A stretch of 24,000 nt of DNA, taken from assembly GCA_018970085.1 (NCBI GenBank), contig JAGWXD010000043.1, positions 401 through 24,400 of the forward strand, read 5' to 3'. Position 1 is the stretch's first letter. Every line of letters begins with the position of its first letter. The notes below the pieces were generated by a model that saw nothing but the letters and a program-made list of their open reading frames with translations, did not search any database and was not told the DNA's origin. Position numbers and translations under genes: made by a program. Source of the stretch: Cyanobacteria bacterium REEB459 (GTDB lineage: Bacteria > Cyanobacteriota > Cyanobacteriia > Phormidesmidales > Phormidesmidaceae). Shown here one piece after another: positions 4,211-22,891 of this stretch.

Positions 4211-5197
4211 CTAGGACAGGGGAGGAGGACCAGGGCGGGAGGGAATCTCTGGTTCACAGGTAAATTTAGCCCAGCGGGAGGGCGTTGGTAGGGCCGACTC
4301 AGCATCGCTGGCGGGTTTAAGAACAGGCATGAGCATACAGGTCTTCTCTAGATAGTAACTGCCTGGCTCAGCGGTGGGCCCGGTCCAGACGGCCAAAATC
4401 TTGAGCTCGTAGCCCTCTGCCTGGCTCTGGGGCTGGGGCAGTTGGATCTGCCAGAGTGAACTCTCAGGCGATGCCTGGGAATGGCTCTGGATCTGGGTTT
4501 GAATGGTTTGCTGATGGCCCTCACGGTTGAGCAGCCACCGTTCTACCGCCGACCAGGGCTGACCATCGGTTTGATCGGCAATAAAGCTTTCTGCCTCCGC
4601 CAAATGGGCCATCCCAGCCGATAGGGGCAGGGGTTGACCAGGCAGGCGATAGACAAAATTACTAGCACCGAAGCGATCGGCCCCCAGGCTGGGGTAGTCT
4701 TTCAACCAGCTTTGAATCCGAAAATGAAACTGTATCCAGCTACTGATTAAAAGACTAAAAAAAAATAGTAGCACTAAGCGTTGCCGCACTGGGGGCAGGG
4801 GGCGCTTGGGCTGGAGGTCCCAGGTCAGGACTTCGGGCACCGCCGCCACGCAAAACGAAATCAGGGGCCAACAAACCAGAGCCGTTGGTAACCATGGGCC
4901 TTGCCACGAACTAAATAGAAATAAACAGAGAACTCCCCCCGCCACCCAGGGCGCCAGCGTTAGGCCAAAGGGCTTGATCTGGCTATGCTCTACGGCCCAG
5001 CCCAGACCTATGGCCAGAAAGATCCAGCTACCACTGGCGAGCAATCCTACGGTAAAGCCACTAGCCCCCAGCAACCGTCCCAGCAGAGACATCAACCAGG
5101 AAAAAATGCTCAAATACAGAATCGTCTGCCAGGAAAAGTAGCGCTCTGGCAATACCAGGGATTTAAAGGCGGCGATGGTCTGGCCTAACCACTTCAT
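4211..5197 (-). CDS. fraD: Membrane protein with five N-terminal TM helices and a soluble C-terminal half (FraD-like septal protein)
   Basis: 328 aa with about 5 predicted hydrophobic helices in the first 160 aa and a Q/P-rich soluble tail. Its ATG overlaps the upstream stop (ATGA at 5194-5197). The assignment rests on operon architecture and is not verified by alignment. Confidence 0.5.
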   Translation of the reverse strand: MKWLGQTIAAFKSLVLPERYFSWQTILYLSIFSWLMSLLGRLLGASGFTVGLLASGSWIFLAIGLGWAVEHSQIKPFGLTLAPWVAGGVLCLFLFSSWQGPWLPTALVCWPLISFCVAAVPEVLTWDLQPKRPLPPVRQRLVLLFFFSLLISSWIQFHFRIQSWLKDYPSLGADRFGASNFVYRLPGQPLPLSAGMAHLAEAESFIADQTDGQPWSAVERWLLNREGHQQTIQTQIQSHSQASPESSLWQIQLPQPQSQAEGYELKILAVWTGPTAEPGSYYLEKTCMLMPVLKPASDAESALPTPSRWAKFTCEPEIPSRPGPPPLS

Positions 5198-5772
5198 GGG
5201 GCTACCTGGAGGACTAATCGAATCACTAATAAGAGCAGAATAGCGGTAAAACTAAGGGCGTTGGCGTGCAATACGGCCAGGGCATGGCTGGATTGCTCTG
5301 GCCCGGCGGGGGAGGGCTGGGGCTGAGACCGGGGGTAGAAACGGCGTTGGATTTTAGGCCGCGGTGCCACCACAGGCAAACTACCCAACAGGCGGGTGAG
5401 GGCATTTAACCCCTGTAGTTTCACCCAGTAGGTTAAAAAGAAAACCCCCATCGCCGTCACCACCACCATGACCGGCAAATTAGGGGATAACCCATTGACG
5501 TATAGGTGGTTAAACAAAACGTAGCTGATCACCTGTTGTTGCCACTCAGGAGGTAATACCGCCTCCAGGGCTAAAAAGGCCAGCCAGCCCAGGCTCGTGG
5601 CCAGCAGGTTAAGGCTAGCGGCATAGTGGACGCTGCTCTGGTAGCCCAAGCGTAGATGCTGCCGTAGCACCATGGCTTCCAGGGCAATCGCCACCATCAG
5701 CAGCATAGTTTGAAAAGCCATCGCTCGCAGTGGCATCAGGCCAAGGTCGGCCAGCAGGTCAGTGAAGGGCAT
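5194..5772 (-). CDS. fraC: Small polytopic membrane protein (FraC-like filament integrity protein)
   Basis: 192 aa. The N-terminal pattern LMPLRAMAFQTMLLMVAIALEAMVLRQHLRL..YAASLNLLATSLGWLAFLALEA resembles the FraC pattern I recall. It is the first gene of the three-gene operon. Confidence 0.5.
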   Translation of the reverse strand: MPFTDLLADLGLMPLRAMAFQTMLLMVAIALEAMVLRQHLRLGYQSSVHYAASLNLLATSLGWLAFLALEAVLPPEWQQQVISYVLFNHLYVNGLSPNLPVMVVVTAMGVFFLTYWVKLQGLNALTRLLGSLPVVAPRPKIQRRFYPRSQPQPSPAGPEQSSHALAVLHANALSFTAILLLLVIRLVLQVAP

Positions 5773-8619: not shown

Positions 8620-8697
<78 letters not shown>

Positions 8698-8841: not shown

Positions 8842-9930
8842 ATGGCCAGGAACCAAAAAAACGACGTTGCCATCGAGAATATAGATGGGTGGATTCGCCT
8901 TCGCTGGCAGTACCAGGGAAAGCGTTGCAGCTTGCGCCTGGGCTTGCCCTATGACCCGATAAATTTGGCTGTTGCCCAGCAACGGGTCAGCCAGATCAGG
9001 CTAGATATTCTCTCAGGTCACTATGATCCATCCCTGGTAAAGTACCGAGGCGGTGAACCCAAGCCACAGGTCATAGGAGCAGTGGAGCTCTTCACCCGGT
9101 TTATCGATTGGAAAGCCAAGCGGGTACAACCCAGGACGCTGGAGAAGTACTACGCCTTAACAGTTTGGCTGAAGGATCAGTTTGGCGATCGCAGCGTTGA
9201 TCCAGAGAATGCCGAAAAGTTCCTAGCCCACTTGCTAGATAACATGGAACCCATCACCGCCAGGGAGCGCCTGGCATTGCTTAACGCCGCCTGGGAATGG
9301 GGAGGGAAGCAGAACCTGGTGTCAGGTAACCCCTGGAGTGATTTAAGGGTCAGGAAGCCCCCTAAGCAAGCCCCCAAGCCATTTACCAAGGCACAGGTAG
9401 CTGCTATCATTGCCGGATTTAGTGAGTCTCGTTACTACCGCCACTATGCCGATTATGTACGGTTCAAGTTGGGGACGGGTTGCAGGACTGGAGAGGTCGC
9501 CGGGCTGCGGTGGAAGCACATTACTGCCGATTGCTCCTTAGTTTGGTTTGGCGAAAGCTTCACTCACGGGCAATTCAAGGACACTAAGACAGGCAAAGCC
9601 AGGGAAGTAAAATTATCCTCCTCTTTGGCCACCATGCTTAAAAATCGGATGCCGGACGATGTTGACCCCGATGCCTTGGTGTTCAGTGCTCCCAAGGGAG
9701 GGGCAATGGATGAACATAATTTTTGCAGAGCCTGGAGAATCGTCCTAAAAGCCCAGGGCATTGCCTACCGAAACCCATACAATACCCGCCATACCTTTAT
9801 CAGCCATGCTTTAGAGGCAGGCATGAGCCCAGTAGAAGTAGCTACCATCACAGGCCATAACGTCAAAACACTATTTGAGAATTACGCCGGCCTGATCAAG
9901 AGCCACCCCACCACACCAGAGCTGTTTTAA
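8842..9930 (+). CDS. Tyrosine-type site-specific integrase
   Basis: The C-terminal catalytic region has GCRTGEVAGLRW (Arg), NTRHTFISHALEAGMSPVEVATITGH (H-x-x-R ... H) and FENYAG (Tyr). The N-terminal arm-type domain reads IDGWIRLRWQYQGKR. Confidence 0.9.
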   Translation: MARNQKNDVAIENIDGWIRLRWQYQGKRCSLRLGLPYDPINLAVAQQRVSQIRLDILSGHYDPSLVKYRGGEPKPQVIGAVELFTRFIDWKAKRVQPRTLEKYYALTVWLKDQFGDRSVDPENAEKFLAHLLDNMEPITARERLALLNAAWEWGGKQNLVSGNPWSDLRVRKPPKQAPKPFTKAQVAAIIAGFSESRYYRHYADYVRFKLGTGCRTGEVAGLRWKHITADCSLVWFGESFTHGQFKDTKTGKAREVKLSSSLATMLKNRMPDDVDPDALVFSAPKGGAMDEHNFCRAWRIVLKAQGIAYRNPYNTRHTFISHALEAGMSPVEVATITGHNVKTLFENYAGLIKSHPTTPELF

Positions 9931-10952: not shown

Positions 10953-11948
10953 TCATTCCAGAATTTCGTCATGATTTCCTGTATTTTTGCCGTTATCCCC
11001 AGAACAGTTTTCTTGAGGCCCCTCGGGGCCAAGCACTAAGCCCCAGTCTGGATTTTGGGCAATTGCCTGGCGAATACCTGGACGACAGGCAGGACTTTGC
11101 CAGAGCTGCTGGTATCGCCTGAGGCGTTCGGTTGGGGTCTCCTGCACCGGTGGGGGTAACGGTGGGGGGCTAGGGTGGGTCTGATGGGTGGTAACAGTTT
11201 CACCCCAGTGTTGATATTCCTGGTAAAGCACATCGCCATATTTTTGGATCCAAGCCGTCGCTACACTCCGGGGAGAAGCGGGTTTCTCGGGCAGACGTGG
11301 AATTTTATAGCTCACCACCCACTCAAAGAAGTCAACATCCAGGAGTAAGGGATCGGGTTCTGGAGAGCTGTTCTGGGGATTGAAAAAGTCATCGCCCCCT
11401 TTTCTCTCTCTTGGATCGGATCTGAAATAGATCTGAGAAAGATCTGTAGGTCTCTGGACCCCTTGCCTGGCAATGGTTTCAGGAGCTAATTGTGACATCC
11501 CTGACACACCCTGGGACATTTCTGACACACCCTGTGACACCTCTGACACACCCGGATCCTGGGACATTTTTGTCACAGTTGTGTCAATTTGACTCACCTG
11601 CCCTAGGCCATCCCCCTGGTCTTCCGGTCCATGGTTGGGAACACGCAGGTCAATGGCGTCATCAATGTTTTCCTCCAGCCTCCCGGCCAGGAGGAGCTGG
11701 GCCTTGGCCCGGTAGAAAGCCCGTCGATTCATCTCCCACTGGCGACAAAACTGAGAGATGTTATCAATGCGGAGCCACCAACCCTGACGCCGTAGGGCCA
11801 GGAGCAAATGGTACAGATAACCCGTAGGGGTATAAAACCCCTGCTGCCAGTTTGCTAACACCTGAGCTGGCGTCAACCGCAGATGGCAGGCATGATCAGA
11901 TTGACGCACCACCCCAGGGGGTTTGCGCCCTCGATGACGATATTTCAT
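10953..11948 (-). CDS. Hypothetical protein with N-terminal winged-helix-like region and internal heptapeptide repeats (possible replication/DNA-binding protein)
   Basis: 331 aa. The N-terminus YLYHLLLALRRQGWWLRIDNISQFCRQWEMNRRAFYRAKAQLLLAGRL looks wHTH-like. The central GVSEVSQ/GVSEMSQ/GVSGMSQ repeat is encoded by 21-bp tandem repeats. The C-terminus is P-rich. Confidence 0.6.
   Translation of the reverse strand: MKYRHRGRKPPGVVRQSDHACHLRLTPAQVLANWQQGFYTPTGYLYHLLLALRRQGWWLRIDNISQFCRQWEMNRRAFYRAKAQLLLAGRLEENIDDAIDLRVPNHGPEDQGDGLGQVSQIDTTVTKMSQDPGVSEVSQGVSEMSQGVSGMSQLAPETIARQGVQRPTDLSQIYFRSDPRERKGGDDFFNPQNSSPEPDPLLLDVDFFEWVVSYKIPRLPEKPASPRSVATAWIQKYGDVLYQEYQHWGETVTTHQTHPSPPPLPPPVQETPTERLRRYQQLWQSPACRPGIRQAIAQNPDWGLVLGPEGPQENCSGDNGKNTGNHDEILE
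11491..11553. repeat. 21-bp tandem repeat x3 (consensus TGKGACAYYTCTGACACACCC) plus degenerate TGTCA/GACA copies to about 11590
   Basis: Units lie at 11491-11511, 11512-11532 and 11533-11553. They are followed by tgggacatttttgtcacagttgtgtcaatttgactca. Confidence 0.9.
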
Positions 11949-12731: not shown

Positions 12732-13061
12732 GTGGACCAAAAATTTCGAGATCGCTTTGCCCAGGTGATACTGGAGTTAAGGGGGAGTGAGCCACAGCGG
12801 AGTTTCTCCCAACGGTTAGGCATTTCCCAGGCCTCGGTATCTGCCTGGGAGAGGGGCAGTTTGCCTACCATCGAGAGCTTTGTCAAGATTGCCACCCTGC
12901 GGGGTCAATATCCCGAGGAATTTATGGCAGAGCTCTACAACCGCAACCCGGCTGAAGTGGCCATTGTGGACCGGGCGGAGATCATGACCAAAGCTCAGTT
13001 AATCGAGTCCTTAGAGGTATTGGTCACCAAACTAAAGGAGAAAGAATTCGAGGCTAACTGA
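12732..13061 (+). CDS. XRE/cI-family helix-turn-helix transcriptional regulator
   Basis: RSFSQRLGISQASVSAWERGSLPTIESFVKIATL is a classic HTH_XRE sequence. I prefer GTG 12732, which lies 10 nt after AAGGAG, over the track TTG start at 12687. Confidence 0.75.
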   Translation: MDQKFRDRFAQVILELRGSEPQRSFSQRLGISQASVSAWERGSLPTIESFVKIATLRGQYPEEFMAELYNRNPAEVAIVDRAEIMTKAQLIESLEVLVTKLKEKEFEAN

Positions 13062-13290: not shown

Positions 13291-14025
13291 CTAGGGCCCT
13301 TCCCCGACATAGCAGATCCGATTGGTGCCCCCAGAGCGGCTATAGGAGGAGCGATCGCCACAGGCTCGACCGGCATTATCTAGATCGTAGGGACAATCAC
13401 AGCGGCCCCGTTGGGGATCTCGAATCGGTACTGGAGTGGTCGGAGTCGGTTCCGGTAGGGGAGGGCTACTGGTTAACCCCTGACGGTAATCCCAGGGCAT
13501 TAGGGGGTTAGCCTGGCTCCAGAAATTTAACTTTGCCCGCCGGGCCTGGGCCTCCTCCGCCAGCAAAGTTTCTCGACTCTCTGGACAAGCGCTGAGGTAT
13601 TGCCGGTAGACCACCGCCTGGCCCTCCTGCACCAGCTTGAGGTTCACCGAAGTGCCATCCAGCAGGTATACCTCCGCCACAACTCGCCCGTAACGATCGC
13701 GGTCAACCTCTCGAAACCTGATCTCTGTTTTTTTAGGTAATAGTTCCCGCAGACGAGCAGCGGCAGCAGGACCGTAGGGAACCTGGGTTGATTCCGGAGC
13801 ATCAATACAGGCCATCCGTATCGTTAGCAGTTGACCTTGATAGGCCATCCGAAAGGTATCTCCATCACCGACAGAAATGACCGTACCAGTAGGTAGATTG
13901 GGACTCGGACTGGCAGTTTGTAGCGCTGGCGTAGGGGCTGGTTTCGTGAGATCGGCGGTGGCATTGGTGCCTACCAGAAGTAGTAGAGCCAGGGTCCCGG
14001 GAATCAAGTACTTGTATCTATTCAT
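13291..14025 (-). CDS. Secreted thermonuclease (staphylococcal nuclease/SNase family) with Cys-rich C-terminal tail
   Basis: The SNase core reads VGDGDTFRM..IRMACIDAPES..RYGRVVAEVYL..NLKLVQEGQAVVY..ARRAKLNFWS. I prefer ATG 14025 (MNRYKYLIPGTLALLLLVGTNATA, a signal peptide) over 14100. The tail reads RCDCPYDLDNAGRACGDRSSYSR. Confidence 0.85.
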   Translation of the reverse strand: MNRYKYLIPGTLALLLLVGTNATADLTKPAPTPALQTASPSPNLPTGTVISVGDGDTFRMAYQGQLLTIRMACIDAPESTQVPYGPAAAARLRELLPKKTEIRFREVDRDRYGRVVAEVYLLDGTSVNLKLVQEGQAVVYRQYLSACPESRETLLAEEAQARRAKLNFWSQANPLMPWDYRQGLTSSPPLPEPTPTTPVPIRDPQRGRCDCPYDLDNAGRACGDRSSYSRSGGTNRICYVGEGP

Positions 14026-14326
14026 GTCTAACTTGGTAGGGATGGATCCCTGAATGTGGTTGAATTCTTGCTTTCTAGTTTTAGCGCACCTTGCCTCCAA
14101 TATTGCCTACTGTCTCAAGGGCTCGGGCGTAGCCGGAGCCTCTAAAATATCTGCCCGGGCATCGCCGGGGCAGATCTCTAACCGAATCCTGAAAATCAGT
14201 TATCCCCAGAACAGCAGAGCCGTTAAGATTTAGAGGTGATAGATAAAAAAACAGATTCTAATCTCTGGATTAGCGCCGTTTCCTGTTTAATTTAGTGATG
14301 TTGGTTTAGCTGAAACCCTAAGACAG

Positions 14327-17281
14327 ATGGCTGGTATCCGGGTCCAATTCAGCACCTACTTGTACAAGCCGGTGATCCGGTCCATGGCTCTGGCGGGTTT
14401 AGGTCTGGCCCTCTCCCTGGCGATCGCGGGTGGGGTGAGACCGTCTGCCAGCCTGGCCCAGACCCAGGCCCCCACCCTGGTGGAGCGAGCCGATCAACTA
14501 TTGGAGAAACACCAACTGGCCCTGGGGGTAGCCGGCGCGGCGGTAGTGGGTTACCTGGGGGTACTGGGGCTGCGACCCCGATGGTTATTGAAACTCCCCT
14601 CCAAGGACATCACCCTACCCTGGACCCAGTGGACCCTACCCCTGACCCTGGTGAAGCCCTTGAAGTATCCCAACCGGGTGCTGGATGCCTGGGTGGAGGA
14701 TCATTGGCAGGTGGCGCGGGATCAATTTCTAGCCCTGGATACCGTAGATAACCGGACCCTTCACATTTCCCTACCGGTGGATCTGGACGGAATAACCCGG
14801 GAAGCCCTTCGCCCAGAGGATCTGGCTCCCACCTTTGCCAAGCAGCCCGCCCTTCTATTAATTACAGCGGAAGGGGGAGCGGGTAAAACCAGTTGGGCCT
14901 GCCAGATTGCCCAATGGGGGCTGGATAAAAAGTTAACTCAACACCGCCTGATTCCTTTATTGATTGAGAAGGACTTAGAGGAAGGGGTTTCCCTGCTAGA
15001 AACCCTGAGGGGGCGACTTGGCACCTTAACCGGCCAAAGTGATCCCCTGCCCCTGGACCTGGTGGAAAAGCTGCTGCGTCGCCAACGGTTGCTGGTGATT
15101 GTGGATCACCTATCGGAGATGGAAGCAACCACCCGTAAAGCCCTTAACCCGGATCTGCCGGACTTTGCCCCTAAGGCCCTGATTATCACCTCCCGTTTAG
15201 AGGAAAAGGATCGTCTGGGAAGTTTACCTAAGAGCATACTGAGGCCCCTACAGATTGAATCGACCCAGCTTTCGCTGTTTATGGTGGCCTACCTGAAGGC
15301 AAAAAATTTGGTGGGTCTACTGGAGGATGACGACTACTTTCTCGGTAGCGATCGCCTGCGCCGCATGACCGCCGATAAACCCATCACCCCCCTGCTGGCC
15401 TGCCTCTACATTGATCAGATGATCAACGAACGAAAAGGGGCCGGGGGCATCCTACCGGATTCTCTACCACGGTTGATGCTGAGCTACCTGACCCAGCTCA
15501 ACCGCGCCATCGAGCCCGCCAATAAACGGGAAGACCGGGAGGTACAACGGGATGCCAGGGCAGTGGCCTGGGCCTGTCTACAAAACACCTACCGCCCCAA
15601 CTGGATTAATACGGAAGCCGCCATCGCCGCCCTGGCCAGGGCGGAGGACAACACCGCCGAAGCCCGATTTCGCTACCTGAAGGACCGCCTATCCTTTCTG
15701 CAAAGCCCCGACCCGGGCGATCGCACCCGGGTGATATTAGACCCCCTGGCGGAATACCTGGCCGCCGCCTACCTGGTGGAACAGATTTCCCAGCAGCCAG
15801 ACCCCGAGGCGGCCTGGGAGGAGTTTTTTAGCCAGACCCTACCGGCCAAGCTGACCAAAACCGACAGTGATGCTATCCAGGTGAAGGGGTTCATCCTGGC
15901 CCTACGGGACTGCTGCCTTGACCAGAGCCAGGATGACGGCATCCCCGCCGGGGTGGCCGACCGCCTGGCCCGCACCGTTGATCTAGACCCCGAGGAACTG
16001 CGGCGCATCGAAGACCAGCGGCGGATTAAGCGGTTGATTGCCGACCTGGCGGAACCCAACCTAAAGGACCGCCTGCGGGCCGCCCAAGAGCTGACCACCT
16101 ACGGAGCCGCCGCCCGGGTGGCCGAACCCAACCTGGTGGGGATGCTAGAGAACCGCAAACAACAACCCCCCCAAGCCCGCCAGGCCGCCGCCGCCGCCCT
16201 GGGCAAACTGAAGATTGGCAACACCGCCCTGCTCACCCTGCTTCAGGATAGCCAAGAGGACCTGGAGGTGCGGGGCAGTGCCGCCCTGGCCCTGGGTGAA
16301 ATGGGCGCCGCCCAGGACACCCTATTGACCCTGCTCAACCATGAGCCCCAACCCCTGGCCCTGCGCCAGGCCGCCAGCCAGGCCCTGGGGTTAAGCGGGG
16401 GCCCCAGCAGCCAACCCCAGCCCATGCTAGAGCTAGGCCTGAGGGAGGGCCAGCCCCTCCCCCGGGTAATTAGCCCCCTGGTGTGGCGGGAAGCCCTGCC
16501 CCTGGAGCAAACCCTGGCCTTGGTGCAGATCCCGGCGGGGGAATTTGTGATGGGGTCTGGGGAGGGTGAGGAAGGCCGAGATTATTACCCCTATAATTTT
16601 CCAGAGACCCAAGGATTAGATGTAGAACAGCAACACCGGGTCAGCCTATCGGCCTTTTACCTGGGCCAGCACCCCGTCACCCAGGCCCAATGGCGAGCCG
16701 TCGCCAGCCTGCCCCCTATTAAGTATGAACTCAACCCAGACCCGGCCCAGTTTAAGGGGGAGCATCGACCCGTCGAGATGGTGACCTGGTATGAGGCGGT
16801 GGAATTTTGCGATCGCCTCTCTCAACACACCGGCAAACCCTACCGACTACCCAGCGAAGCGGAATGGGAATACGCCTGTCGGGCCGGTACCAGCACCCCC
16901 TTTTACTTCGGTGACACGATCACCCCCGACCTGGCCAACTACAACGGTAACTACAGTTATGGCTCTGGGCCGAAGGGAACCTATCGAGAACAGACTACCC
17001 CGGTGGGTAGCTTTGGGGTGAACCCCTGGGGACTAGCGGACATGCACGGTAATGTTTTGGAGTGGTGTGAAGACCACTGGCACCCCAGCTACGACAGTGC
17101 CCCCAGGGATGGTAGCGCCTGGGTGACTGGTGGCGATGATCGCTTTCGCCTGGTGCGGGGCGGGTCCGGGTTTAGCCTCCCAGTGGGCTGTCGCTCGGCC
17201 TTCCGCAATCGCCTCGATCCGAATGCTCGATTCAATGTCATCGGTTTTCGGGTGGTGTGTGCGCCGCCTGGGCTCCTGTAG
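14327..17281 (+). CDS. DGR target (variable) protein: TM helices, NACHT-like P-loop NTPase, HEAT repeats, FGE-sulfatase/C-type-lectin-fold domain carrying the VR
   Basis: Hydrophobic segments occur at aa ~20-36 and ~64-83. Walker A is ITAEGGAGKTSW (nt ~14870-14890). Walker B-like is RLLVIVDHLSEM (~15085-15120). Four PBS-lyase-type HEAT repeats (RLRAAQEL.., ARQAAAAALGKL, LEVRGSAALALGEMG, LALRQAASQALG) span nt ~16020-16400. The FGE/SUMF1 domain (GEFVMGS..HRVSLSAFYLGQHPVTQAQW..VTWYEAVEFC..LPSEAEWEYACRAG..GLADMHGNVLEWCED..VRGGS..IGFRVV) spans nt ~16515-17278. Confidence 0.9.
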   Translation: MAGIRVQFSTYLYKPVIRSMALAGLGLALSLAIAGGVRPSASLAQTQAPTLVERADQLLEKHQLALGVAGAAVVGYLGVLGLRPRWLLKLPSKDITLPWTQWTLPLTLVKPLKYPNRVLDAWVEDHWQVARDQFLALDTVDNRTLHISLPVDLDGITREALRPEDLAPTFAKQPALLLITAEGGAGKTSWACQIAQWGLDKKLTQHRLIPLLIEKDLEEGVSLLETLRGRLGTLTGQSDPLPLDLVEKLLRRQRLLVIVDHLSEMEATTRKALNPDLPDFAPKALIITSRLEEKDRLGSLPKSILRPLQIESTQLSLFMVAYLKAKNLVGLLEDDDYFLGSDRLRRMTADKPITPLLACLYIDQMINERKGAGGILPDSLPRLMLSYLTQLNRAIEPANKREDREVQRDARAVAWACLQNTYRPNWINTEAAIAALARAEDNTAEARFRYLKDRLSFLQSPDPGDRTRVILDPLAEYLAAAYLVEQISQQPDPEAAWEEFFSQTLPAKLTKTDSDAIQVKGFILALRDCCLDQSQDDGIPAGVADRLARTVDLDPEELRRIEDQRRIKRLIADLAEPNLKDRLRAAQELTTYGAAARVAEPNLVGMLENRKQQPPQARQAAAAALGKLKIGNTALLTLLQDSQEDLEVRGSAALALGEMGAAQDTLLTLLNHEPQPLALRQAASQALGLSGGPSSQPQPMLELGLREGQPLPRVISPLVWREALPLEQTLALVQIPAGEFVMGSGEGEEGRDYYPYNFPETQGLDVEQQHRVSLSAFYLGQHPVTQAQWRAVASLPPIKYELNPDPAQFKGEHRPVEMVTWYEAVEFCDRLSQHTGKPYRLPSEAEWEYACRAGTSTPFYFGDTITPDLANYNGNYSYGSGPKGTYREQTTPVGSFGVNPWGLADMHGNVLEWCEDHWHPSYDSAPRDGSAWVTGGDDRFRLVRGGSGFSLPVGCRSAFRNRLDPNARFNVIGFRVVCAPPGLL
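17147..17270 (+). repeat. DGR variable repeat (VR), 3' end of the target gene
   Basis: Gap-free 124-bp alignment to 19014-19137 (offset 1867). There are 20 mismatches, 19 of them at TR adenines. The repeat is in frame and encodes [41 protein letters not shown]. Confidence 0.9.
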
Positions 17282-17331
17282 CCCTTTACCCTTTTGCGCT
17301 TTTGCCCTTTGCCCTGGGTCGAGGTTCGAAT

Positions 17332-17346
17332 ACGCGCGGAGCGCGT
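17332..17346 (+). terminator. GC hairpin ACGCGC-GGA-GCGCGT followed by TTTAAAAATTTTT (terminator and/or DGR target-recognition hairpin)
   Basis: Perfect 6-bp GC-rich stem, 51 nt after the target stop codon, with an A/T tract downstream. Confidence 0.4.
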
Positions 17347-17485
17347 TTAAAAATTTTTCAGTGCCACGGCTGGGTATTCGTTCTAGCTGGCCGGCGACTA
17401 TAACCTTAGGTAACATTATGGGCCACCGCCACATCTAGGGGTGTAGAGTGATATTTTCACCCCTTTACCCCCAGATAGGCAATTT

Positions 17486-17863
17486 ATGACTAAACCTGCC
17501 GTCGCCGATTTGCCCGTCATTCAAAAAGCTTACGATCTGGTGAAGTGGTACGTCCCCATTCTGAACCGCCTACCCCGAGATCATCGTTTCACCCTGGGGG
17601 AACGCATCATTCAAGGGCTCTATGACCTGTTAGAAGGCCTGATCCAGGCCCGTTACAGCGCCAATAAACTAGAGCGTCTACAAACCCTCAACATCCGCCT
17701 GGACCTGCTTCGCCACCAAACCCGACTTCTATTCGACTTTCACCTGATGGAGGTTAGTCGTTATGAGTATGTTGGCACGATGATCAACGACCTGGGCATG
17801 GAACTAGGGGGATGGATAAAACAACAGAAAACCCGTCAGCCCCCCTCACTGCACCCCAGTTAA
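17486..17863 (+). CDS. avd: DGR accessory variability determinant (Avd), four-helix-bundle protein
   Basis: 125 aa. [50 protein letters not shown] matches the four-helix-bundle / 23S rRNA-IVS protein family used as DGR Avd. It lies immediately upstream of the RT. Confidence 0.85.
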
Positions 17864-17879
17864 ACCCCGGGTAACCACC

Positions 17880-18956
17880 ATGAAACGCCACGGCTACCTG
17901 TGGGAGGGGATTATTGACTTTGCCAACCTGCTGGCAGCGGCCCGCCAGGCCCAGAAAGGGCGACGGATGCGGGATAACATTCTGCGCTTTAACTACAACC
18001 TGGAATCAGAACTCCTCCAACTACGCCAGGAACTGATCAACCAAACCTATTCTCCTGGACCCTACACCACCTTTCAGGTGAGGGAACCCAAGGCCCGATT
18101 AATTTCTGCCGCACCCTACCGGGACCGGGTGATTCACCATGCCCTGTGTAACGTGATCCTACCGATCTTTGAGGTCACCTTCATTCGTGATTCCTACGCT
18201 AACCGGCTGGGCTATGGCAGCCATCGAGCCCTGAAGCGATTTATCGAATTTAGCCGCTCCAGCCGCTATATCTTGCAATGTGACGTGCGCAAGTACTTCC
18301 CCTCCATCGACCATGCCCTTCTCAAGGAAATGATTCGCCGCAAGATCAAATGCCCCCCTACCCTGTGGCTGATTGATCGGATCATCGATGCCAGCAACGA
18401 CCAGGAGCCGGTGATTGACTATTTCCCTGGAGATGACCTACTCACCCCCATTCAGCGGCGGCGGGGCCTACCGATTGGTAACCTGACCAGTCAATTCTTT
18501 GCCAACATCTACCTGAATAGCCTGGATCACCTGGTCAAAGAACAGCTCCGTATAGCAAAGTATCTGCGCTACGTCGATGACTTTGCCCTATTTGCCGATG
18601 ACCGAGATACCTTAATCACAGCCCGCTTAGCTCTCGAAGCCCACCTAGCCAAACTACGCTTGAGGATTCACCCCATTAAAAGTCAACTGTTTGAAACATC
18701 CCGAGGCCCCACCTTTGTTGGGTTTCGGGTTTGCCCAGACCGGGTGCGGGTCAGATCCGCCAGCCTTCGCCGTGGTCGATATCGCCTGAAACGATATCAA
18801 CGACAGTACGCCCAGCATGATTTATCCTTCGAGCAACTGACCCAGGCCATTCGTAGCTGGGCAGCCCACCTGAAACATGCCGACACCTGGCACTTGAGAG
18901 CCGACATTTTTACCCAGTTAGTGTTTGTCAAAACTCCCAAGCTGCAAACAAGATGA
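17880..18956 (+). CDS. DGR reverse transcriptase
   Basis: RT motifs are present: [47 protein letters not shown] (the DGR-typical I/LGxxxSQ), [14 protein letters not shown] (catalytic YVDD) and FVGFRV. At 358 aa it has no maturase or endonuclease extension. Confidence 0.9.
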
Positions 18957-19013
18957 AAAATACTCCACTCAAGGCCAATTTAGCCTAGGGTGAAGGCTAG
19001 GGGCAGGTCAGCC

Positions 19014-19137
19014 CACCTGGTGCGGGGCGGGTCCTGGTATAACAACCCAGTAAACTGTCGCTCGGCCAACCGCAATCGCAACAATCCGAATAATCGAAAC
19101 AATAACATCGGTTTTCGGGTGGTGTGTGCGCCGCCTG
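19014..19137 (+). repeat. DGR template repeat (TR)
   Basis: It starts 57 nt after the RT stop. In the VR frame it reads [41 protein letters not shown], with 12 AAY codons. Adenines at third codon positions occur only in 4-fold degenerate codons (CCA, GTA, CGA). The last 28 nt contain no adenine and are identical to the VR. Confidence 0.9.
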
Positions 19138-19503
19138 CACTCTTGAGCGCCAGAGCCAGTCAATGATCATTGATTGGGCGTGCCCATAAGAGTCCAGACC
19201 TGCTCCTGTCATACCCCCTGGCTCTCTAATCCTGGAGACCTGGTATGCAAAAACACCCCTGGGCTGAGCAGCCTGGTAGGCCATAGCTCGACGGGTTGTT
19301 TAGCCCATCCCTCCATTTGCCCGAGCTGCGGACCTTAAGAGATGCGGACCTTAAGAAAGGTTTTTAGATTTGAGCTCCCTAATCACTCCCCCGTAGAGTG
19401 AATAAATCACATCACACTCCCGACCCTGCCACCCCGGCGGGGTTCTTAGTTTGTGGTTGTCATCGCTGACGTCACAACTAACCCTGGGCTTCAGTGCCCC
19501 CCC

Positions 19504-19713: not shown

Positions 19714-20121
19714 CTAATACCCCAACGCCTTCACCACATAGTCTGGTAACGACTCCACCCCCGTAGGTGGACTCTCCTGGGAAAAGGTAATCAACCGTAC
19801 ATAGCCACTCTCCCCCTCCTCCCCACTGCCCACAGGGCGGCTAAACCAGATGGCCGCCCCATACTTGGGATTACTACCACAGCGCCTCAGATAGTAATGG
19901 CCCATCCACCAGACCACCGTCGGCCCATAGGGATCTCGCTTAATTTCATGGGCCCCAATTCGACTCACCCAATTGCCCCCATACTCTGACAAAGGCTTAC
20001 GCCAATTAGGCGGATGCTGACTGGCCAGTGCCATCATCGCCAGCTCTATACGCTTGAGGGTCTCCGTCAATAGCCCAAACAGGGCACTGGTATCGCTGCC
20101 ATTACCGGTGGTAGTCGCCAT
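19714..20121 (-). CDS. Hypothetical protein (phage-like module)
   Basis: 135 aa. AAGGAG sits 8 nt upstream of ATG 20121. No motif recognised. Confidence 0.6.
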   Translation of the reverse strand: MATTTGNGSDTSALFGLLTETLKRIELAMMALASQHPPNWRKPLSEYGGNWVSRIGAHEIKRDPYGPTVVWWMGHYYLRRCGSNPKYGAAIWFSRPVGSGEEGESGYVRLITFSQESPPTGVESLPDYVVKALGY

Positions 20122-20161
20122 AATTTCAACTCCTTTAACTCAAGTTTTGCTAGACAAGCCC

Positions 20162-20935
20162 TTAGGGAAAGCAAAACAAACTGGGCTGAAACCCCGACAC
20201 CGCCGCCGCCGCCAGCCCCGTATCTAGATCAATGCCAATGGCGTCATAGCCCCGCTCACCCGCCGCCAACAAAGAGGTACCCGTGCCACAAAAGGGATCC
20301 AACACCGTAGCCCGCTGCCGCGTTGCACAGCCGAGTAACCGCCGGGCCAGGGCCGGGGCCATCTTACAGGGATGCTCTGAAGCCACCGACGGATAGGCCA
20401 GCACACTGGTATCGGTGGGGGTATAGGCTAACCGGGGCCGCTGCCGGCGATCGCAACCCAACACAAACACATACTCATGGCAACGGCGAGGATTGCCCAA
20501 GGGCTGCTGACTGCGGTTACCCTGATGCCAGATCAAGGTTTCACGATGCACCCACCCCGCCCCCTGCAACCGCTGTAGCAATAGCCAGGGCACCGGTATC
20601 TCCTCCCCACTGCGATAGCCAGGCTCCGGCCTCCGGCGATAGGACGCCGCCGCCCCCCGACCCCCTCGCCTAACCACGCTATAGCCACTGGTGGTCGGCC
20701 CCAGGTTCAGCCACAACACCCCCCCCTGGGCCATACCCGCCTGCACCAGGGCAAACACCCGCTCTAGACAACCCAGATAGGCCCCTAGACTTTCCTCATG
20801 GCCGTACTCCCCCGGATGGCCGTAGTCAATCAGACCATAGTAGGGGGGACTGGTGAGGGCATAGTGCCACCCCCGGCCCTGGGAAAGGAGCGTTTGCAGG
20901 TGGGTCAGGGCATCGCCCTGGAATAGGTCAATCAT
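20162..20935 (-). CDS. DNA methyltransferase, N4/N6 family, beta-class motif order (orphan)
   Basis: Catalytic motif IV is LTSPPYYGL near the N-terminus. The AdoMet motif I, VLDPFCGTGTSLLAA, is near the C-terminus and is preceded by HPCKMAPALARRLL. Confidence 0.85.
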   Translation of the reverse strand: MIDLFQGDALTHLQTLLSQGRGWHYALTSPPYYGLIDYGHPGEYGHEESLGAYLGCLERVFALVQAGMAQGGVLWLNLGPTTSGYSVVRRGGRGAAASYRRRPEPGYRSGEEIPVPWLLLQRLQGAGWVHRETLIWHQGNRSQQPLGNPRRCHEYVFVLGCDRRQRPRLAYTPTDTSVLAYPSVASEHPCKMAPALARRLLGCATRQRATVLDPFCGTGTSLLAAGERGYDAIGIDLDTGLAAAAVSGFQPSLFCFP

Positions 20936-21001
20936 GGATTTAGTCCGAAGGAAGCAGGGTTACCCCCAGCCAGGGCCAGGGTGTTAGCAATCGACCAACC
21001 C

Positions 21002-21862
21002 TCAAGCCCGCTGGGCGGCCTGGGAACTGGCCAGACTGGTAATCAACTCAACCAGGCGATCGCAGTCGCTAGAGGACAACTGGCGCGGATTAGTCCGCCC
21101 ATCAAACTCCGCCATAATCAAACTGCGCACCGACTCCAGATCTAAGCCCGCCGCCTCCCGGGCCACCCGGACCCGCCGCCCCTTACTCTCCCCACTCTCC
21201 TCCATCGGACTGCCATCACTGAGCCAGAGCATCAGGGTATCGGCCAAAGACTCCCCCGGATTAGCATGGGTGGTATTAGCCAGGGCCGGACAGCGGCTCT
21301 TGGAAATCGAGAGGATATGGTTAAGATCCATCTCCCCCGCCAGGTCAAACTCATACTCAATACCAGAGGCCTGAATCGGGGCCATCCCCACCTTGCGGGG
21401 GGCCGTCCTACCTTTCTGGTCTTCTTCTAATACCCACTCCGTCTTCGTCCGCATGGTGCCGATGATATGGGCGGGAGACCCCAGCATCTCCTGAACCAAA
21501 GCCCGCTCTAGCTTGCGCACATCTCCCCAGGCGGCAAAGGAATTTTGGGCTTGACTGGTCTTATCTAACTCCCAGAACCAGGCATGGCTAAGGGAATCAA
21601 TAATGATCACCTCATACTCCGCCTGGGCCGCCTCCCGTAACAGATTGATGTAATTACCGGGATGGCAATCCTTCAACTCACAGACATCAAACTCGAACCG
21701 GTCAGCATACTTACTGGCACTGCCATGCTCGGTGTCAATCACCGCAATCCGTCTACCCAGATGCTGGGCAATATTGAGAGCGCTGTAGGTCTTACCACAG
21801 CCACTCGGCCCCGATAGGGCCAGCCGCAGGCGGGATTGGTGTTTAGTGGCCTTCTTAAACAT
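21002..21862 (-). CDS. AAA_24 / Sak4-like RecA-fold ATPase (phage recombination-replication type)
   Basis: I prefer ATG 21862 (MFKKATKHQSRLRLALSGPSGCGKTYSALN), which has TAAGGAG 7 nt upstream. Walker A is GPSGCGKT. Walker B is EVIIIDSLSHAW. Confidence 0.75.
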   Translation of the reverse strand: MFKKATKHQSRLRLALSGPSGCGKTYSALNIAQHLGRRIAVIDTEHGSASKYADRFEFDVCELKDCHPGNYINLLREAAQAEYEVIIIDSLSHAWFWELDKTSQAQNSFAAWGDVRKLERALVQEMLGSPAHIIGTMRTKTEWVLEEDQKGRTAPRKVGMAPIQASGIEYEFDLAGEMDLNHILSISKSRCPALANTTHANPGESLADTLMLWLSDGSPMEESGESKGRRVRVAREAAGLDLESVRSLIMAEFDGRTNPRQLSSSDCDRLVELITSLASSQAAQRA

Positions 21863-21884
21863 GGTCAATCTCCTTAGTGGAATA

Positions 21885-22142
21885 CTAAAACTCGTCAGAA
21901 TCAACCTCAGTCAAGGGCGAGACCTGCCGCCTGCCCTTCACCCCCCCGGGGGATAAACCAGCCAACTCACCCTCAAAATTACGAAACAGCGCCCCCACCA
22001 CCGCCAGTAGACCCCAGCGGTCTACGATGGCTTGCAGGTGGGCCAGGTCCAATTCCCAGGCCTGGGCGCGTTCATCCTCGATTCGCTCCTGTTCAGCCTG
22101 GTAATGCTGATAGGCCAGTTCAACGGGTTCACGGACCATCAT
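21885..22142 (-). CDS. Hypothetical protein
   Basis: I prefer ATG 22142 (MMVREPVELAYQHYQ...), preceded by GGAGGAG and lying 13 nt after the upstream stop. The track start at 22280 would overlap the upstream gene. Confidence 0.5.
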   Translation of the reverse strand: MMVREPVELAYQHYQAEQERIEDERAQAWELDLAHLQAIVDRWGLLAVVGALFRNFEGELAGLSPGGVKGRRQVSPLTEVDSDEF

Positions 22143-22155
22143 GGTGATCTCCTCC

Positions 22156-22482
22156 CTACAGGGCCTCAAGCTTGGTCTCAATCCGTTGGATCGCCGCATA
22201 GGTGTCCTGAAGTAGCTCCAGGCTGGGCACCTCAGGCCGAGCAGGATCCCTGAGACTCTGATCAATTGCCTGTAGCTCACTCAAAACCTCCCCAAGCAGG
22301 GCTTGAACCTTCCCCACCTGGGCCGATTTCAGACTTTGCCGGTAGTTGCTGAGCTTCGCAGCGGCCACTATGGCCATATCCAACACATCATCCAGGGCCT
22401 TATCCGGCTGATTCCTACTCCAAACATTGGGATTAGCCAGCAACGCGGCCATCAATTGAATCAGAATTGGGTCGTCATCCAT
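22156..22482 (-). CDS. Hypothetical helical protein
   Basis: 108 aa. GAAGGAG lies upstream of ATG 22482. No family recognised. Confidence 0.5.
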   Translation of the reverse strand: MDDDPILIQLMAALLANPNVWSRNQPDKALDDVLDMAIVAAAKLSNYRQSLKSAQVGKVQALLGEVLSELQAIDQSLRDPARPEVPSLELLQDTYAAIQRIETKLEAL

Positions 22483-22600
22483 GGTTCTTTCTCCTTCAAT
22501 CAGTAATTAGTGGGCAGATGCTAGCGATCGCGGCGGCTGATGTTCTGGGGATAACCCTTGAGAAAAAGGGCCTTTTAACGCCCTGCCCAGGGCTTGTAAC

Positions 22601-22891
22601 CTAGCCCTGCCTGAGGGCCGAAAGGGGCTGAGGCTGAAAGTGCAGATCTCGCTCTACCGGTAACCCCAGCACCGTGACCGACTCCAACTCACTGAGACTG
22701 AAATAACCCAATTCTTCTTCCAACCCCTGCACCAGGCCAAACAACAGATCTTCCCCATCAAACTCGGTGACATACCAGCGAAAGCAAGACAGGGGATGGA
22801 AAAACTTGACCCGAGCGATTGGATCCTCTACCTTCTCTTGGGAATAGAGGGGAGGGAGGGTTTGACGGATAGTTTTAGGTAGCAGTTCCAT
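22601..22891 (-). CDS. DUF2958 domain protein
   Basis: [59 protein letters not shown]...[11 protein letters not shown] matches the DUF2958 consensus as I recall it. Confidence 0.7.

Follow-up and report, generated by a model that had tools for sequence, protein, structure and literature searches.

The 24,000-nucleotide stretch of Cyanobacteria bacterium REEB459 that we have analysed, referred to here as the window, holds a complete diversity-generating retroelement (DGR) that targets the ORF at 14327-17281, and the host lineage of the locus is a Nodosilinea/Leptolyngbya-like filamentous cyanobacterium. We read the locus as a cellular DGR with a single local target, a membrane-anchored NACHT protein that would serve as a hypervariable sensor of an invader ligand with an output at the membrane, and we give this reading a probability of about 0.6. 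The ORF is exactly the one of the original prediction, and every domain that had been placed on this NLR-like STAND protein, i.e. a transmembrane (TM) segment, a NACHT NTPase, HEAT repeats and a C-type-lectin (CLec)/FGE domain, has been recovered, the TM segment by hydropathy and the others by Pfam together with structure prediction and Foldseek; the AF2 model of the protein has a pLDDT of 79.5, and 427 homologs have the same architecture. The coordinates of the features are collected in the table.

Table. Features of the DGR locus and of the left boundary of its island, in window coordinates.
Feature	Position	Strand	Basis and remarks
tRNA-Pro	8624-8697	+	ARAGORN and Rfam; left boundary of the island carrying the locus
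Tyrosine integrase	8842-9930	+	Pfam Phage_integrase; phrog_1 1e-47; left boundary of the island
DGR target gene	14327..17281	+	984 aa; SP-TM-NACHT-NCH4-HEAT-CLec; ORF call and Pfam
Probable Sec signal peptide, residues 1-44	14327..14458	+	n-region R5/K14/R18, h-region 20-37, ASLA/QTQ (slash, predicted cleavage site)
TM helix 63-82 and juxtamembrane motif RPRWLLKLPS 83-92 (residues 63-92)	14513..14602	+	hydropathy 2.09
NACHT NTPase module (NBD, helical, winged-helix, NCH4), residues 173-555	14843..15991	+	Pfam, Foldseek, invariant motifs
Walker A EGGAGKT, residues 182-188	14870-14893	+	motif reading
Walker B LLVIVDHLSE, residues 255-264	15089-15118	+	motif reading
HEAT repeats, residues 561-700	16007..16426	+	Pfam HEAT_2 (634-695); PDB alphaRep/HEAT matches
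All-beta extension 700-745, then FGE-sulfatase/C-type-lectin domain (residues 700-977)	16424..17257	+	Pfam, model
VR, last ~40 codons of the target (residues 941-981)	17149..17270	+	IMH-like 3' end runs on to 17278
avd (accessory variability determinant)	17486..17863	+	NCBIfam DivGenRetAVD 2.9e-40; Pfam bAvd 7e-19
DGR reverse transcriptase (RT)	17880..18956	+	Pfam RVT_1 4e-21; PADLOC RT 7e-48; IGNLTSQ, YVDD
TR, with 12 AAY codons when read in the frame of the VR	19016..19137	+	repeat search; same as the TR of locus L005
Terminator-like hairpin closing the Avd-RT-TR unit	19422..19444	+	consensus match only

The target, Avd, RT and TR all lie within 5 kb. Avd scores 136.8 bits against the DivGenRetAVD cutoff of 80, and the RT is 38-39% identical to phage DGR RTs. 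The repeat that pairs the VR with the TR (17149-17278 and 19016-19145) is 130 nt long and 83% identical; 19-20 of its 22 mismatches, depending on the alignment window taken, are located at TR adenines, and the changes affect the first and second positions of AAY codons. The 12 AAY codons and three partly variable ones would allow about 10^16 peptides, and the targeted codons are also hypervariable across 46 homologs. As judged from the sequence, Avd, RT and TR are a standard mutagenic-retrohoming cassette that rewrites these codons, which map to the ligand-binding face of the C-terminal C-type-lectin domain, a domain of the TvpA type. Close to the VR on its 3' side, where a GC-rich hairpin or cruciform may be expected of a DGR, there is just a hairpin of 5-6 bp at about 17332-17346, and the sequence 17240-17370 does not fold better than its shuffled versions (z = -0.23).

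At the opposite end of the protein, hydropathy reveals two hydrophobic segments (at about residues 20-37 and 63-82), as had been predicted, but the first is a probable cleavable Sec signal peptide, so that the notion of two N-terminal membrane helices probably does not hold; from its likely cleavage we infer a probably single-pass protein, with the NACHT, HEAT and CLec parts probably in the cytoplasm. An N-terminus of this type (a positively charged n-region, an h-region and a small-x-small motif followed by Gln) is seen by eye in most of the 46 homologs, 30 of which are caught by a crude regular expression, and the segment is poorly conserved (2.6 bits of entropy), as is expected of signal peptides. 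The TM helix is flanked by a net charge of -0.5 on its N-side and of +1.2 on its C-side; the signal peptide, this charge bias and the ATP requirement of the NTPase agree with the cytoplasmic location that had been proposed for the VR tip, cleavage and topology being judged by rule of thumb rather than by a trained predictor. No segment of the protein is as conserved as the juxtamembrane motif, RPxWLLKLPS in its family form (0.93 bits, versus 1.23 for the NBD). Residues 1-172 match no Pfam, NCBIfam or PADLOC domain and hold just the signal peptide, the TM helix and a pre-NBD segment that is conserved. The effector or adaptor domain that the tripartite NLR logic calls for has been recognised nowhere in the target with Pfam, NCBIfam and PADLOC, nor does the target match the models that PADLOC has for known defence proteins.

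The predicted NACHT-like Walker A and Walker B motifs are both present, and their key residues (G183, G184, G186, K187, T188, D260 and E264) are invariant across the 46 homologs. The Pfam NACHT match of the target itself, at residues 179-271, is weak (E 0.007, 16.6-17.9 bits versus a gathering cutoff of 26.7); among 13 family members, NACHT is matched by all 13 at E<=0.01 (best 1e-8), more frequently and with higher scores than NB-ARC and nSTAND, while NCH4 (PF22731), located at residues 518-555 of the target (3e-11, 43.4 bits versus a cutoff of 27), also matches all 13. In the Foldseek search with residues 60-560 of the model, the first 31 ranks are taken up entirely by animal NACHT NLRs (NLRP3, NOD2, NLRC4, NAIP5, NLRP2), with a best E of 8e-10 and a TM-score of about 0.5 for most of them, followed lower down by CED-4, Apaf-1 and ORC; this ranking of the model supports the assignment of the central domain to the NACHT-type STAND NTPase fold, as proposed from the outset. 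The HEAT repeats are likewise borne out, by Pfam HEAT_2 and by PDB matches to designed alphaRep/HEAT proteins (down to 4e-17), and the region is helical in the AF2 model at a pLDDT of about 90.

The DGR locus is located in an integrase/tRNA-Pro island, together with a DNA methyltransferase and a nuclease. The target is surrounded by genes for a nuclease, an HTH regulator and replication/recombination, with no phage structural genes among them, and among IMG/VR viral contigs no relative of the TM-NACHT module is found; we have rejected an Mtd-like phage receptor-binding target on these grounds, in line with the original prediction. A VMAP/MoxR-vWA ternary conflict system has also been rejected, as MoxR ATPase, vWA and VMAP genes are missing from the window ORFs scanned with Pfam, and the same scan has found no EAD or peptidase gene. 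All-vs-all clustering of the ORFs that flank 28 CLec-bearing loci, to about 6.5 kb on the upstream side and 8 kb on the downstream side, has returned no conserved partner gene: only Avd and RT recur.

On the preferred reading, the cleaved protein would sit in the cytoplasmic or thylakoid membrane, with some 20 residues outside, followed by one TM helix. The CLec tip, displayed on the HEAT solenoid, would bind an intracellular ligand, most likely a phage component or a part of another invader, and this binding would free the protein from autoinhibition and permit ATP-dependent oligomerisation of the NACHT module, by analogy with other STAND/NLR proteins; the DGR would provide an anticipatory, heritable repertoire of sensor specificities. 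As neither an enzymatic effector domain nor a conserved partner gene is found, the only candidate output element is the TM helix at the N-terminus, together with the RPxWLLKLPS motif, which is extremely conserved, and we speculate that TM helices clustered in the oligomer might perturb or permeabilise the membrane, leading to abortive infection. In plant resistosomes of the ZAR1 type, the N-terminal helices of the NLR are thought to insert into or perturb the membrane once the NTPase oligomerises. The analogy to ZAR1 is limited to the output step that we propose; the N-termini are non-homologous, the helix described here, unlike that of ZAR1, comes after a signal peptide and serves constitutively as a TM anchor, and pore formation is entirely hypothetical. 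The full sequence of CLec capture, NACHT oligomer and resistosome-like membrane lesion, in an effector-less type-I membrane NLR that has the TM helix and RPxWLLKLPS as its sole output, is a tentative model that we consider unlikely to be correct as it stands; if true, a multicellular bacterium would have an "antibody-NLR", an immune receptor that is heritable and hypermutates somatically, and the presence or absence of the cassette from strain to strain would set which lineages can still re-draw their sensor repertoire.

In the core family, the TM-NACHT module is always paired with HEAT repeats, often as a large N-terminal domain after the signal peptide and a Cys pair, the latter being conserved right after the signal peptide in long-form relatives, a further point in favour of the proposed topology; this order places HEAT outside the cytoplasm in such relatives, so across the family HEAT sensor domains occur on either side of the membrane. 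Relatives without CLec have just the extracytoplasmic HEAT domain, the TM helix and the NACHT module, a layout that resembles a transmembrane signalling receptor as much as an immune sensor. The protein could accordingly be a transmembrane signalling or kin-recognition receptor instead of an antiviral sensor, with the NACHT module relaying filament integrity, cell-cell contact or self/non-self and the DGR tuning a cytoplasmic adaptor-binding or allorecognition surface. The constant and often extracytoplasmic HEAT domain, the missing effector domain and partner gene, and the near restriction of the family to filamentous, multicellular cyanobacteria in our homolog survey all fit this alternative; regulatory tuning has been argued for by Vallota-Eastman et al. 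(PMC7517822), and kin recognition has been raised as an alternative by Doré et al. (PMC10907252). We nevertheless rate it well below the sensor reading, with perhaps one chance in five, because only about 20 residues are outside and the diversified surface, being cytoplasmic, is poorly placed to sense neighbouring cells, because an anticipatory diversity of about 10^16 is more in keeping with an arms race than with a signalling partner that stays fixed, and because the island that carries the locus, with its methyltransferase and nuclease, is mobile.

The comparison of related strains and metagenomes has revealed at least five VR haplotypes (the window, L005, L022, L081 and L082) against the same TR scaffold, with 14-21 changes per haplotype at TR adenines and only 2-3 elsewhere, two of these in the IMH-like 3' end, which indicates repeated diversification of the VR in natural populations; the sequence cluster of a homolog with 86% identity has 20 variable columns, of which 13 are located within residues 950-972. 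Other observations could point to decay. The Avd-RT-TR cassette is missing as a clean indel in L022 and L082 (the terminator-like hairpin lies just inside the right edge, at ~19468, of the segment missing in L022), the L022 target is broken into three ORFs, and Avd or RT remnants adjoin the targets in L012 and L016. The VR of the window carries W948G, a non-adenine T->G change at the near-invariant structural Trp of the GGSW core motif (Trp in 43 of the 46 homologs and in the TR), and this target allele may be impaired. A point against the sensor reading is that in about two thirds of the testable CLec-bearing relatives neither RT nor Avd is present in the flank that was fetched, so constant coupling to a local DGR is not required. 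A decaying or orphaned system, in which the target would be non-functional and the DGR a selfish passenger, gained and lost over time and of no adaptive use at present, is still improbable to us, and less credible than a signalling receptor: the 984-codon ORF is intact, as are Avd and RT, the TR has kept its AAY codons and shares 100% identity with the L005 TR, the VRs of close relatives vary only at adenine sites and contain no stop codons, another retrohoming event would bring Trp948 back from the TR, and the frameshifts in L022 may be MAG assembly errors.

The C-terminal region begins with β strands at residues 700-742 in the AF2 model, and Pfam FGE-sulfatase is matched at residues 731-977 (2e-48). 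Its similarity to PvdO (8e-29), to TvpA, a solved DGR variable protein (3e-26), and to human FGE (2e-13 by sequence, 4e-10 by fold) is in keeping with the predicted C-type-lectin fold. Cys336 of human FGE aligns in HMMER to Ser950, whose codon is DGR-variable and reads AAC (Asn) in the TR; Cys955, aligned with human C341, is the sole residue of the FGE catalytic pair that is retained. The pair, the presence of which the original prediction had proposed to check, is thus broken, and no member of a sulfatase family is present among the window ORFs scanned with Pfam. The variable codon at the Cys336 position and the TvpA match support a binding scaffold rather than an enzyme. A SUMF1/EgtB/PvdO-type enzyme regulated by the NTPase, which would fit the strong FGE-sulfatase match, the sub-threshold NCBIfam matches to PvdO and EgtB and the database names of the homologs ("SUMF1/EgtB/PvdO family nonheme iron enzyme", the automatic annotation that had been foreseen), is highly implausible, given NCBIfam scores far under their cutoffs (PvdO 129.6 bits versus 500), a catalytic position deliberately randomised by the DGR, a closest solved DGR protein, TvpA, that is a non-enzymatic binding scaffold, and no sulfatase gene among the window ORFs scanned.

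DGR-diversified NLR-like proteins are the closest bacterial analogue yet proposed to an anticipatory, hypermutating immune receptor. The locus is compact and complete, with close relatives both with and without the cassette, which makes it a reasonable candidate for a first functional test, and the search for an output mechanism is narrowed by the probable single-pass topology, by the lack of an effector domain, by a juxtamembrane motif whose conservation exceeds that of the ATPase core and by HEAT sensor domains on both sides of the membrane across the family.

Among known systems, TvpA of Treponema denticola (PDB 2Y3C) shares the location of the VR in the last ~40 residues and the RGGSW...C...GFR scaffold, but it is a small surface lipoprotein with no NTPase, whereas the domain described here is probably cytoplasmic and fused to NACHT and HEAT. 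The VMAP/MoxR-vWA ternary systems (Kaur et al. 2020, PMC7159879) also have a cyanobacterial, DGR-diversified FGS domain of the TvpA type, with the other domains always N-terminal to it, as in the target; the NTPase of the target, unlike theirs, is a NACHT within the same polypeptide. bNACHT proteins are antiphage, and their FGS-type members have been proposed to be DGR-diversified antigen receptors (10.1101/2022.07.19.500537; PMC10907252; PMC7159879); Kibby et al. (bioRxiv 10.1101/2022.07.19.500537) list antigen-receptor NACHTs of the "FGS domain type" as diversified by DGR RTs. The target resembles their "antigen receptor type i: FGS domain" in its NACHT with an NCH-type C-terminal helical domain and in its C-terminal FGS domain, predicted to be diversified by the DGR RT, while the experimentally validated bNACHTs, none of which is of the FGS type, belong to the E. 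coli type, use other sensors and have effectors that are enzymes or adaptors.

Another close class is that of Thiohalocapsa PB-PSB1 DGR3 and DGR6 (RT clade 5D), whose targets combine NACHT/nSTAND with a C-terminal CLec (PMC10907252). Doré et al. 2024 propose exactly such a sensor role for CLec-bearing STAND proteins, the CLec domains of which they describe as experimentally uncharacterized (PMC10907252). The likeness extends to a central STAND NTPase fused to a C-terminal, DGR-diversified CLec/FGE domain, to a multicellular host, to the proposed role of antigen sensor and, in some members, to TM segments and to N-terminal extensions in which no known domain is recognised. The locus differs from the PB-PSB1 DGRs in its cyanobacterial (Nodosilinea-like) host, in a single local target rather than duplicated ones, in HEAT repeats between NACHT and CLec, in an N-terminus made of a signal peptide and a single TM helix, and in that no neighbouring peptidase, EAD or WD40 effector is found. 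The reading of such proteins as NLR-like hypervariable sensors is already published as a hypothesis (Kaur 2020; Kibby 2022; Doré 2024), and the locus is a clean further example of a predicted receptor class that leaves the current picture of these systems unchanged; what it adds is the juxtamembrane motif, the relatives with extracytoplasmic HEAT, the lack of an effector or partner, the tRNA-Pro/integrase island, and a cassette that some close relatives have and others lack.

The locus is a canonical, intact diversity-generating retroelement (DGR): the target gene, the accessory variability determinant (Avd), the reverse transcriptase (RT) and the template region (TR) follow one another on one strand, confirming the original observation of a DGR target gene. 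The variable region (VR) and the TR differ at 22 positions, 19-20 of which are located at TR adenines (the number varies with the window taken); the changes at adenines fall on codon positions 1 and 2 of 12 AAY codons, each of which allows 15 amino acids and never a stop, with a computed total of ~10^16 peptides. The repeat search has returned a single TR-like repeat and no second VR within the window, and the fold 3' of the VR, where a DGR cruciform was sought, could not be told apart from chance.

Features of the DGR locus, of the neighbouring tRNA/integrase pair and of the target protein
Feature	Position	Strand	Remarks
tRNA-Pro(GGG)	8624-8697		directly ahead of integrase
Tyrosine integrase	8842-9930		immediately after tRNA-Pro
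Target ORF	14327..17281	+	984 aa
VR copy of repeat	17149-17278	+	3' end of target gene
avd	17486..17863	+	NCBIfam DivGenRetAVD 2.9e-40, above cutoff
DGR reverse transcriptase	17880..18956	+	RVT_1 4e-21; IGNLTSQ and YVDD
TR copy of repeat	19016-19145	+	130-nt repeat, 83% identity to VR copy
NACHT	residues 179-271		Pfam, weak match
NCH4 ("NACHT C-terminal helical domain 4")	residues 518-555		Pfam 3e-11
HEAT_2	residues 634-695		Pfam
FGE-sulfatase	residues 731-977		Pfam 2e-48

The comparison of related loci shows clearly that rewriting of the VR has taken place again and again among them. L005 (a Leptolyngbya MAG contig) has a TR 100% identical to the one in the window, and no two VRs agree among the window, L005, L022 (the MAG chromosome of Nodosilinea LVE1205-7) and the related loci L081 and L082, with 14-21 changes at TR adenines and just 2-3 elsewhere, two of the latter in the IMH-like 3' end. 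An 86%-identical metagenomic homolog has a 90% cluster with at least 5 haplotypes, where 13 of the 20 variable columns are located in residues 950-972, and the hypervariable codons across 46 aligned homologs are the same as the DGR-variable codons. L081 carries the same VR scaffold despite a NACHT module that is only ~46% identical, and therefore one TR could serve several paralogs in trans.

The Avd-RT-TR cassette itself varies cleanly by presence or absence: the window and L005 have it, L022 and L082, a metagenome contig, lack it, and the target with a diversified VR is kept in all four. In L022, a single clean block that corresponds to window 17454-19468 is absent, with flanks that align on both sides; the block contains Avd, RT, TR and a terminator-like hairpin, and the DNA methyltransferase is a second indel (window 20135-20924); the corresponding L022 positions are 12989-12994 and 13657-13688. 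The orthologous target of L022 (9773-12809) is broken into three ORFs (373, 140 and 517 aa), and may be a pseudogene that followed the loss of the cassette, or the product of assembly-error frameshifts. Among the CLec-bearing (C-type-lectin-fold) relatives with enough flank, Avd and/or RT adjoins the target in about a quarter to a third and remnants occur in two, the others having neither gene within the flank. CP089923, Leptolyngbya sp. JSC-1 and Kovacikia minuta are examples of complete genomes with a CLec-NACHT gene that no RT adjoins.

The DGR locus is part of an integrated island that also carries genes of phage-like type for replication and recombination, as is indicated by the tRNA-Pro/integrase pair, which looks like the left end of the island, by the gene run downstream and by the ordinary chromosomal genes upstream of the tRNA. 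The integrase is followed by an XRE-type HTH protein, a secreted SNase-family nuclease and the DGR locus, and then by a phage-like replication/recombination run (19714-22891, minus strand) of a DdrB-like ssDNA-binding protein, an N6/N4 DNA methyltransferase, an AAA_24/Sak4-like ATPase (phrog_1366, 7e-71) and a DUF2958 protein. A search of the window for an attR copy of the tRNA-Pro end gave none, which places the right end of the island beyond 24000, and the tRNA is the only Rfam match. We speak of an island and not of a demonstrated prophage, because the PHROGs scans of the island, in the window and in the syntenic L022 region, returned no phage structural genes (integrase, methyltransferase and Sak4-like matches only) and no relative occurs in IMG/VR. 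The staphylococcal-nuclease-family protein (13291-14100, minus strand) has a C-terminal Cys-rich tail and a match to the PADLOC candidate "SNc+LTD" (2e-17), and its gene is transcribed away from the target. It is more probably cargo of the island than a partner, since its synteny is limited to the two closest relatives, L001 and L022, which are also the only ones to share the HTH neighbour. An unannotated 331-aa ORF (10953-11948, minus strand), with no Pfam or PHROG match, contains four tandem 21-bp repeats (TGTGACAYYYCTGACACACCC) at 11489-11577; these look like iterons, and the island could use them as an origin or to bind a regulator. Elsewhere in the window (4211-5772, minus strand), the genes of FraC, a filament integrity protein, and of a DUF5357 protein next to it point to a filamentous cyanobacterium as the host.

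The domain that carries the VR has the C-type-lectin/FGE fold that had been proposed from the sequence, with PvdO, TvpA and FGE being the structures that Foldseek returns from the PDB for the C-terminus. A role as a formylglycine-generating enzyme is rejected on the catalytic residues: the Cys pair, which the original prediction had singled out for a check, is lost in the target, with one Cys only being kept, and the position of the catalytic Cys336 in the alignment with human FGE is occupied by Ser950, a DGR-variable codon. The NCBIfam enzyme models score far under their cutoffs and, judged by its residues, the domain is not an enzyme. Next to Ser950, codon 948 (window 17168) shows a non-adenine T->G change, from TGG in the TR to GGG in the VR, that replaces Trp948 with Gly in the RGGSW core motif; Trp is located at this position in 43 of the 46 homologs, the AF2 confidence is <50 at residues 948-950, and the VR of L005 likewise has one non-A change. 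W948G could stem from one of the rare errors of the RT away from adenines, and could weaken the target allele in the window.

The central part of the target has been compared by fold, because the search of the NACHT region against the PDB by sequence profile was uninformative (best E 0.008, to TnsC). The AlphaFold model of residues 60-560 (pLDDT 82.8, pTM 0.76; the full-length model, from the 46-sequence alignment, has a pLDDT of 79.5) has nothing but animal NACHT NLRs at Foldseek ranks 1-31 (NLRP3, NOD2, NLRC4, NAIP5 and NLRP2; best E 8e-10, TM score ~0.5 for most), with CED-4, Apaf-1 and ORC ranking below them. NACHT and NCH4 were matched in all 13 diverse family members that were scanned one by one, NACHT more frequently and with higher scores than the NB-ARC and nSTAND models, and 46 homologs share, without exception, the residues of Walker A (G183, G184, G186, K187, T188) and of Walker B (D260, E264); together, these results bear out the NACHT/STAND NTPase that had been read from the sequence. 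The target has no PADLOC match among models of known defence systems.

Two hydrophobic segments are located at the N-terminus of the target. The first is, by eye, signal-peptide-like in most of the 46 homologs, with a basic n-region, a poorly conserved h-region and a small-x-small motif followed by Gln (ASLA|QTQ in the target), a pattern that a crude regular expression caught in 30 of the 46. Two forms of the region between this segment and the second helix occur in the family: a short form, a Pro/Thr-rich stub with a conserved PTLxERxxQLxxKHQ helix, to which the target belongs (~20 residues after the predicted cleavage site), and a long form, a 180-330-residue HEAT-like domain with a conserved Cys pair at its start, a pattern that is usual for oxidising compartments outside the cytoplasm. 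The net charge is -0.5 on the N-side of the second helix (residues 63-82) and +1.2 on the C-side, after which comes RPxWLLKLPS, more conserved than any other stretch of the protein (entropy 0.93 bits, versus 1.23 for the nucleotide-binding part of the NACHT module). From these features, we infer a single-pass N-out/C-in membrane protein with its NACHT, HEAT and CLec parts in the cytoplasm, in agreement with the cytoplasmic VR of the original prediction, but with one transmembrane (TM) helix in place of the two proposed, the first segment probably being a signal peptide.

The large protein collection contains 427 relatives of the target, nearly all annotated only as "SUMF1/EgtB/PvdO family" or "formylglycine-generating enzyme", and the GTDB species genomes contain 275 related loci. 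The 80 retained loci are cyanobacterial, mostly from filamentous genera, except for one from a MAG labelled Syntrophobacteraceae (L064), for which misbinning or horizontal transfer could account; the closest relatives, from Nodosilinea, are 79% and 75% identical over the N-terminal module. Residues 45-175, used as a HMMER query against every representative protein, matched 247 families, where the TM/pre-NBD module lies anywhere from residue 3 to residue 1313 and, in the sampled proteins, is always located ahead of NACHT/STAND-type NTPase and NCH4 matches. In the sample scanned, HEAT repeats flank the module N-terminally (outside), C-terminally (inside) or in both places, and the CLec domain occurs solely on forms with C-terminal HEAT; from this arrangement, TM-NACHT-NCH4 is constant and the repeats and the CLec domain can be exchanged, which is what one would expect of sensors. 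Relatives from Nostoc, Calothrix and Scytonema (L032-L080; P0154-P0273) have a signal peptide, a large N-terminal HEAT ectodomain of up to ~1300 aa, TM, NACHT and NCH4, and nothing C-terminal of NCH4, which suggests an NLR-like ATPase with a repeat "sensor" outside the cytoplasm.

The sequence and model work settles the retroelement, its target site, the domain order, the NACHT and CLec identities, the loss of the FGE catalytic pair and the natural diversity of the VR, and we give a probability of roughly 0.6 to the reading as a whole, namely a DGR-diversified NLR-like sensor that faces the cytoplasm and acts in conflict. By analogy with established STAND/NLR behaviour and published proposals, the CLec tip would bind an intracellular ligand and the NACHT module would oligomerise with ATP, whereupon output would ensue. 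We further propose that output may pass through the TM helix and the juxtamembrane motif, because this is the sole conserved element that is neither sensor nor NTPase, and neither the protein nor its neighbourhood offers anything else: none of the family members examined has an enzymatic effector domain, and the clustering of all ORFs from ~6.5 kb upstream to 8 kb downstream of the match in the 80 related loci has returned, as recurring genes, only Avd and RT, in a minority of loci. Beside the 28 CLec-bearing loci, too, Avd and RT are the only genes that recur. A membrane lesion as the output step, taken by itself, is rather unlikely.

Apart from the topology, the original interpretation is supported; the idea of a DGR-diversified NLR-like sensor is right, but already in print, and the window by itself holds nothing very surprising to a specialist. 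The class is an attractive problem, of which this locus is a tidy example with useful natural controls; no experimental test of DGR-diversified CLec-STAND proteins was found in the literature. Bacterial NACHT sensors have been classified by Kibby et al. (bioRxiv 10.1101/2022.07.19.500537), and FGE-sulfatase sensors on STANDs are listed again in a 2026 survey (PMC13581612). Doré et al. 2024 (PMC10907252) have shown the targets of DGR RT clade 5 to be NACHT/nSTAND-CLec proteins, some with TM segments, and propose for them a role as antigen sensors, noted as untested. The C-terminal domain of the target shares with the TvpA-like FGS domains the all-beta extension that is typical of them (Kaur et al., PMC7159879), formed by strands at residues 700-742 in the AlphaFold model.
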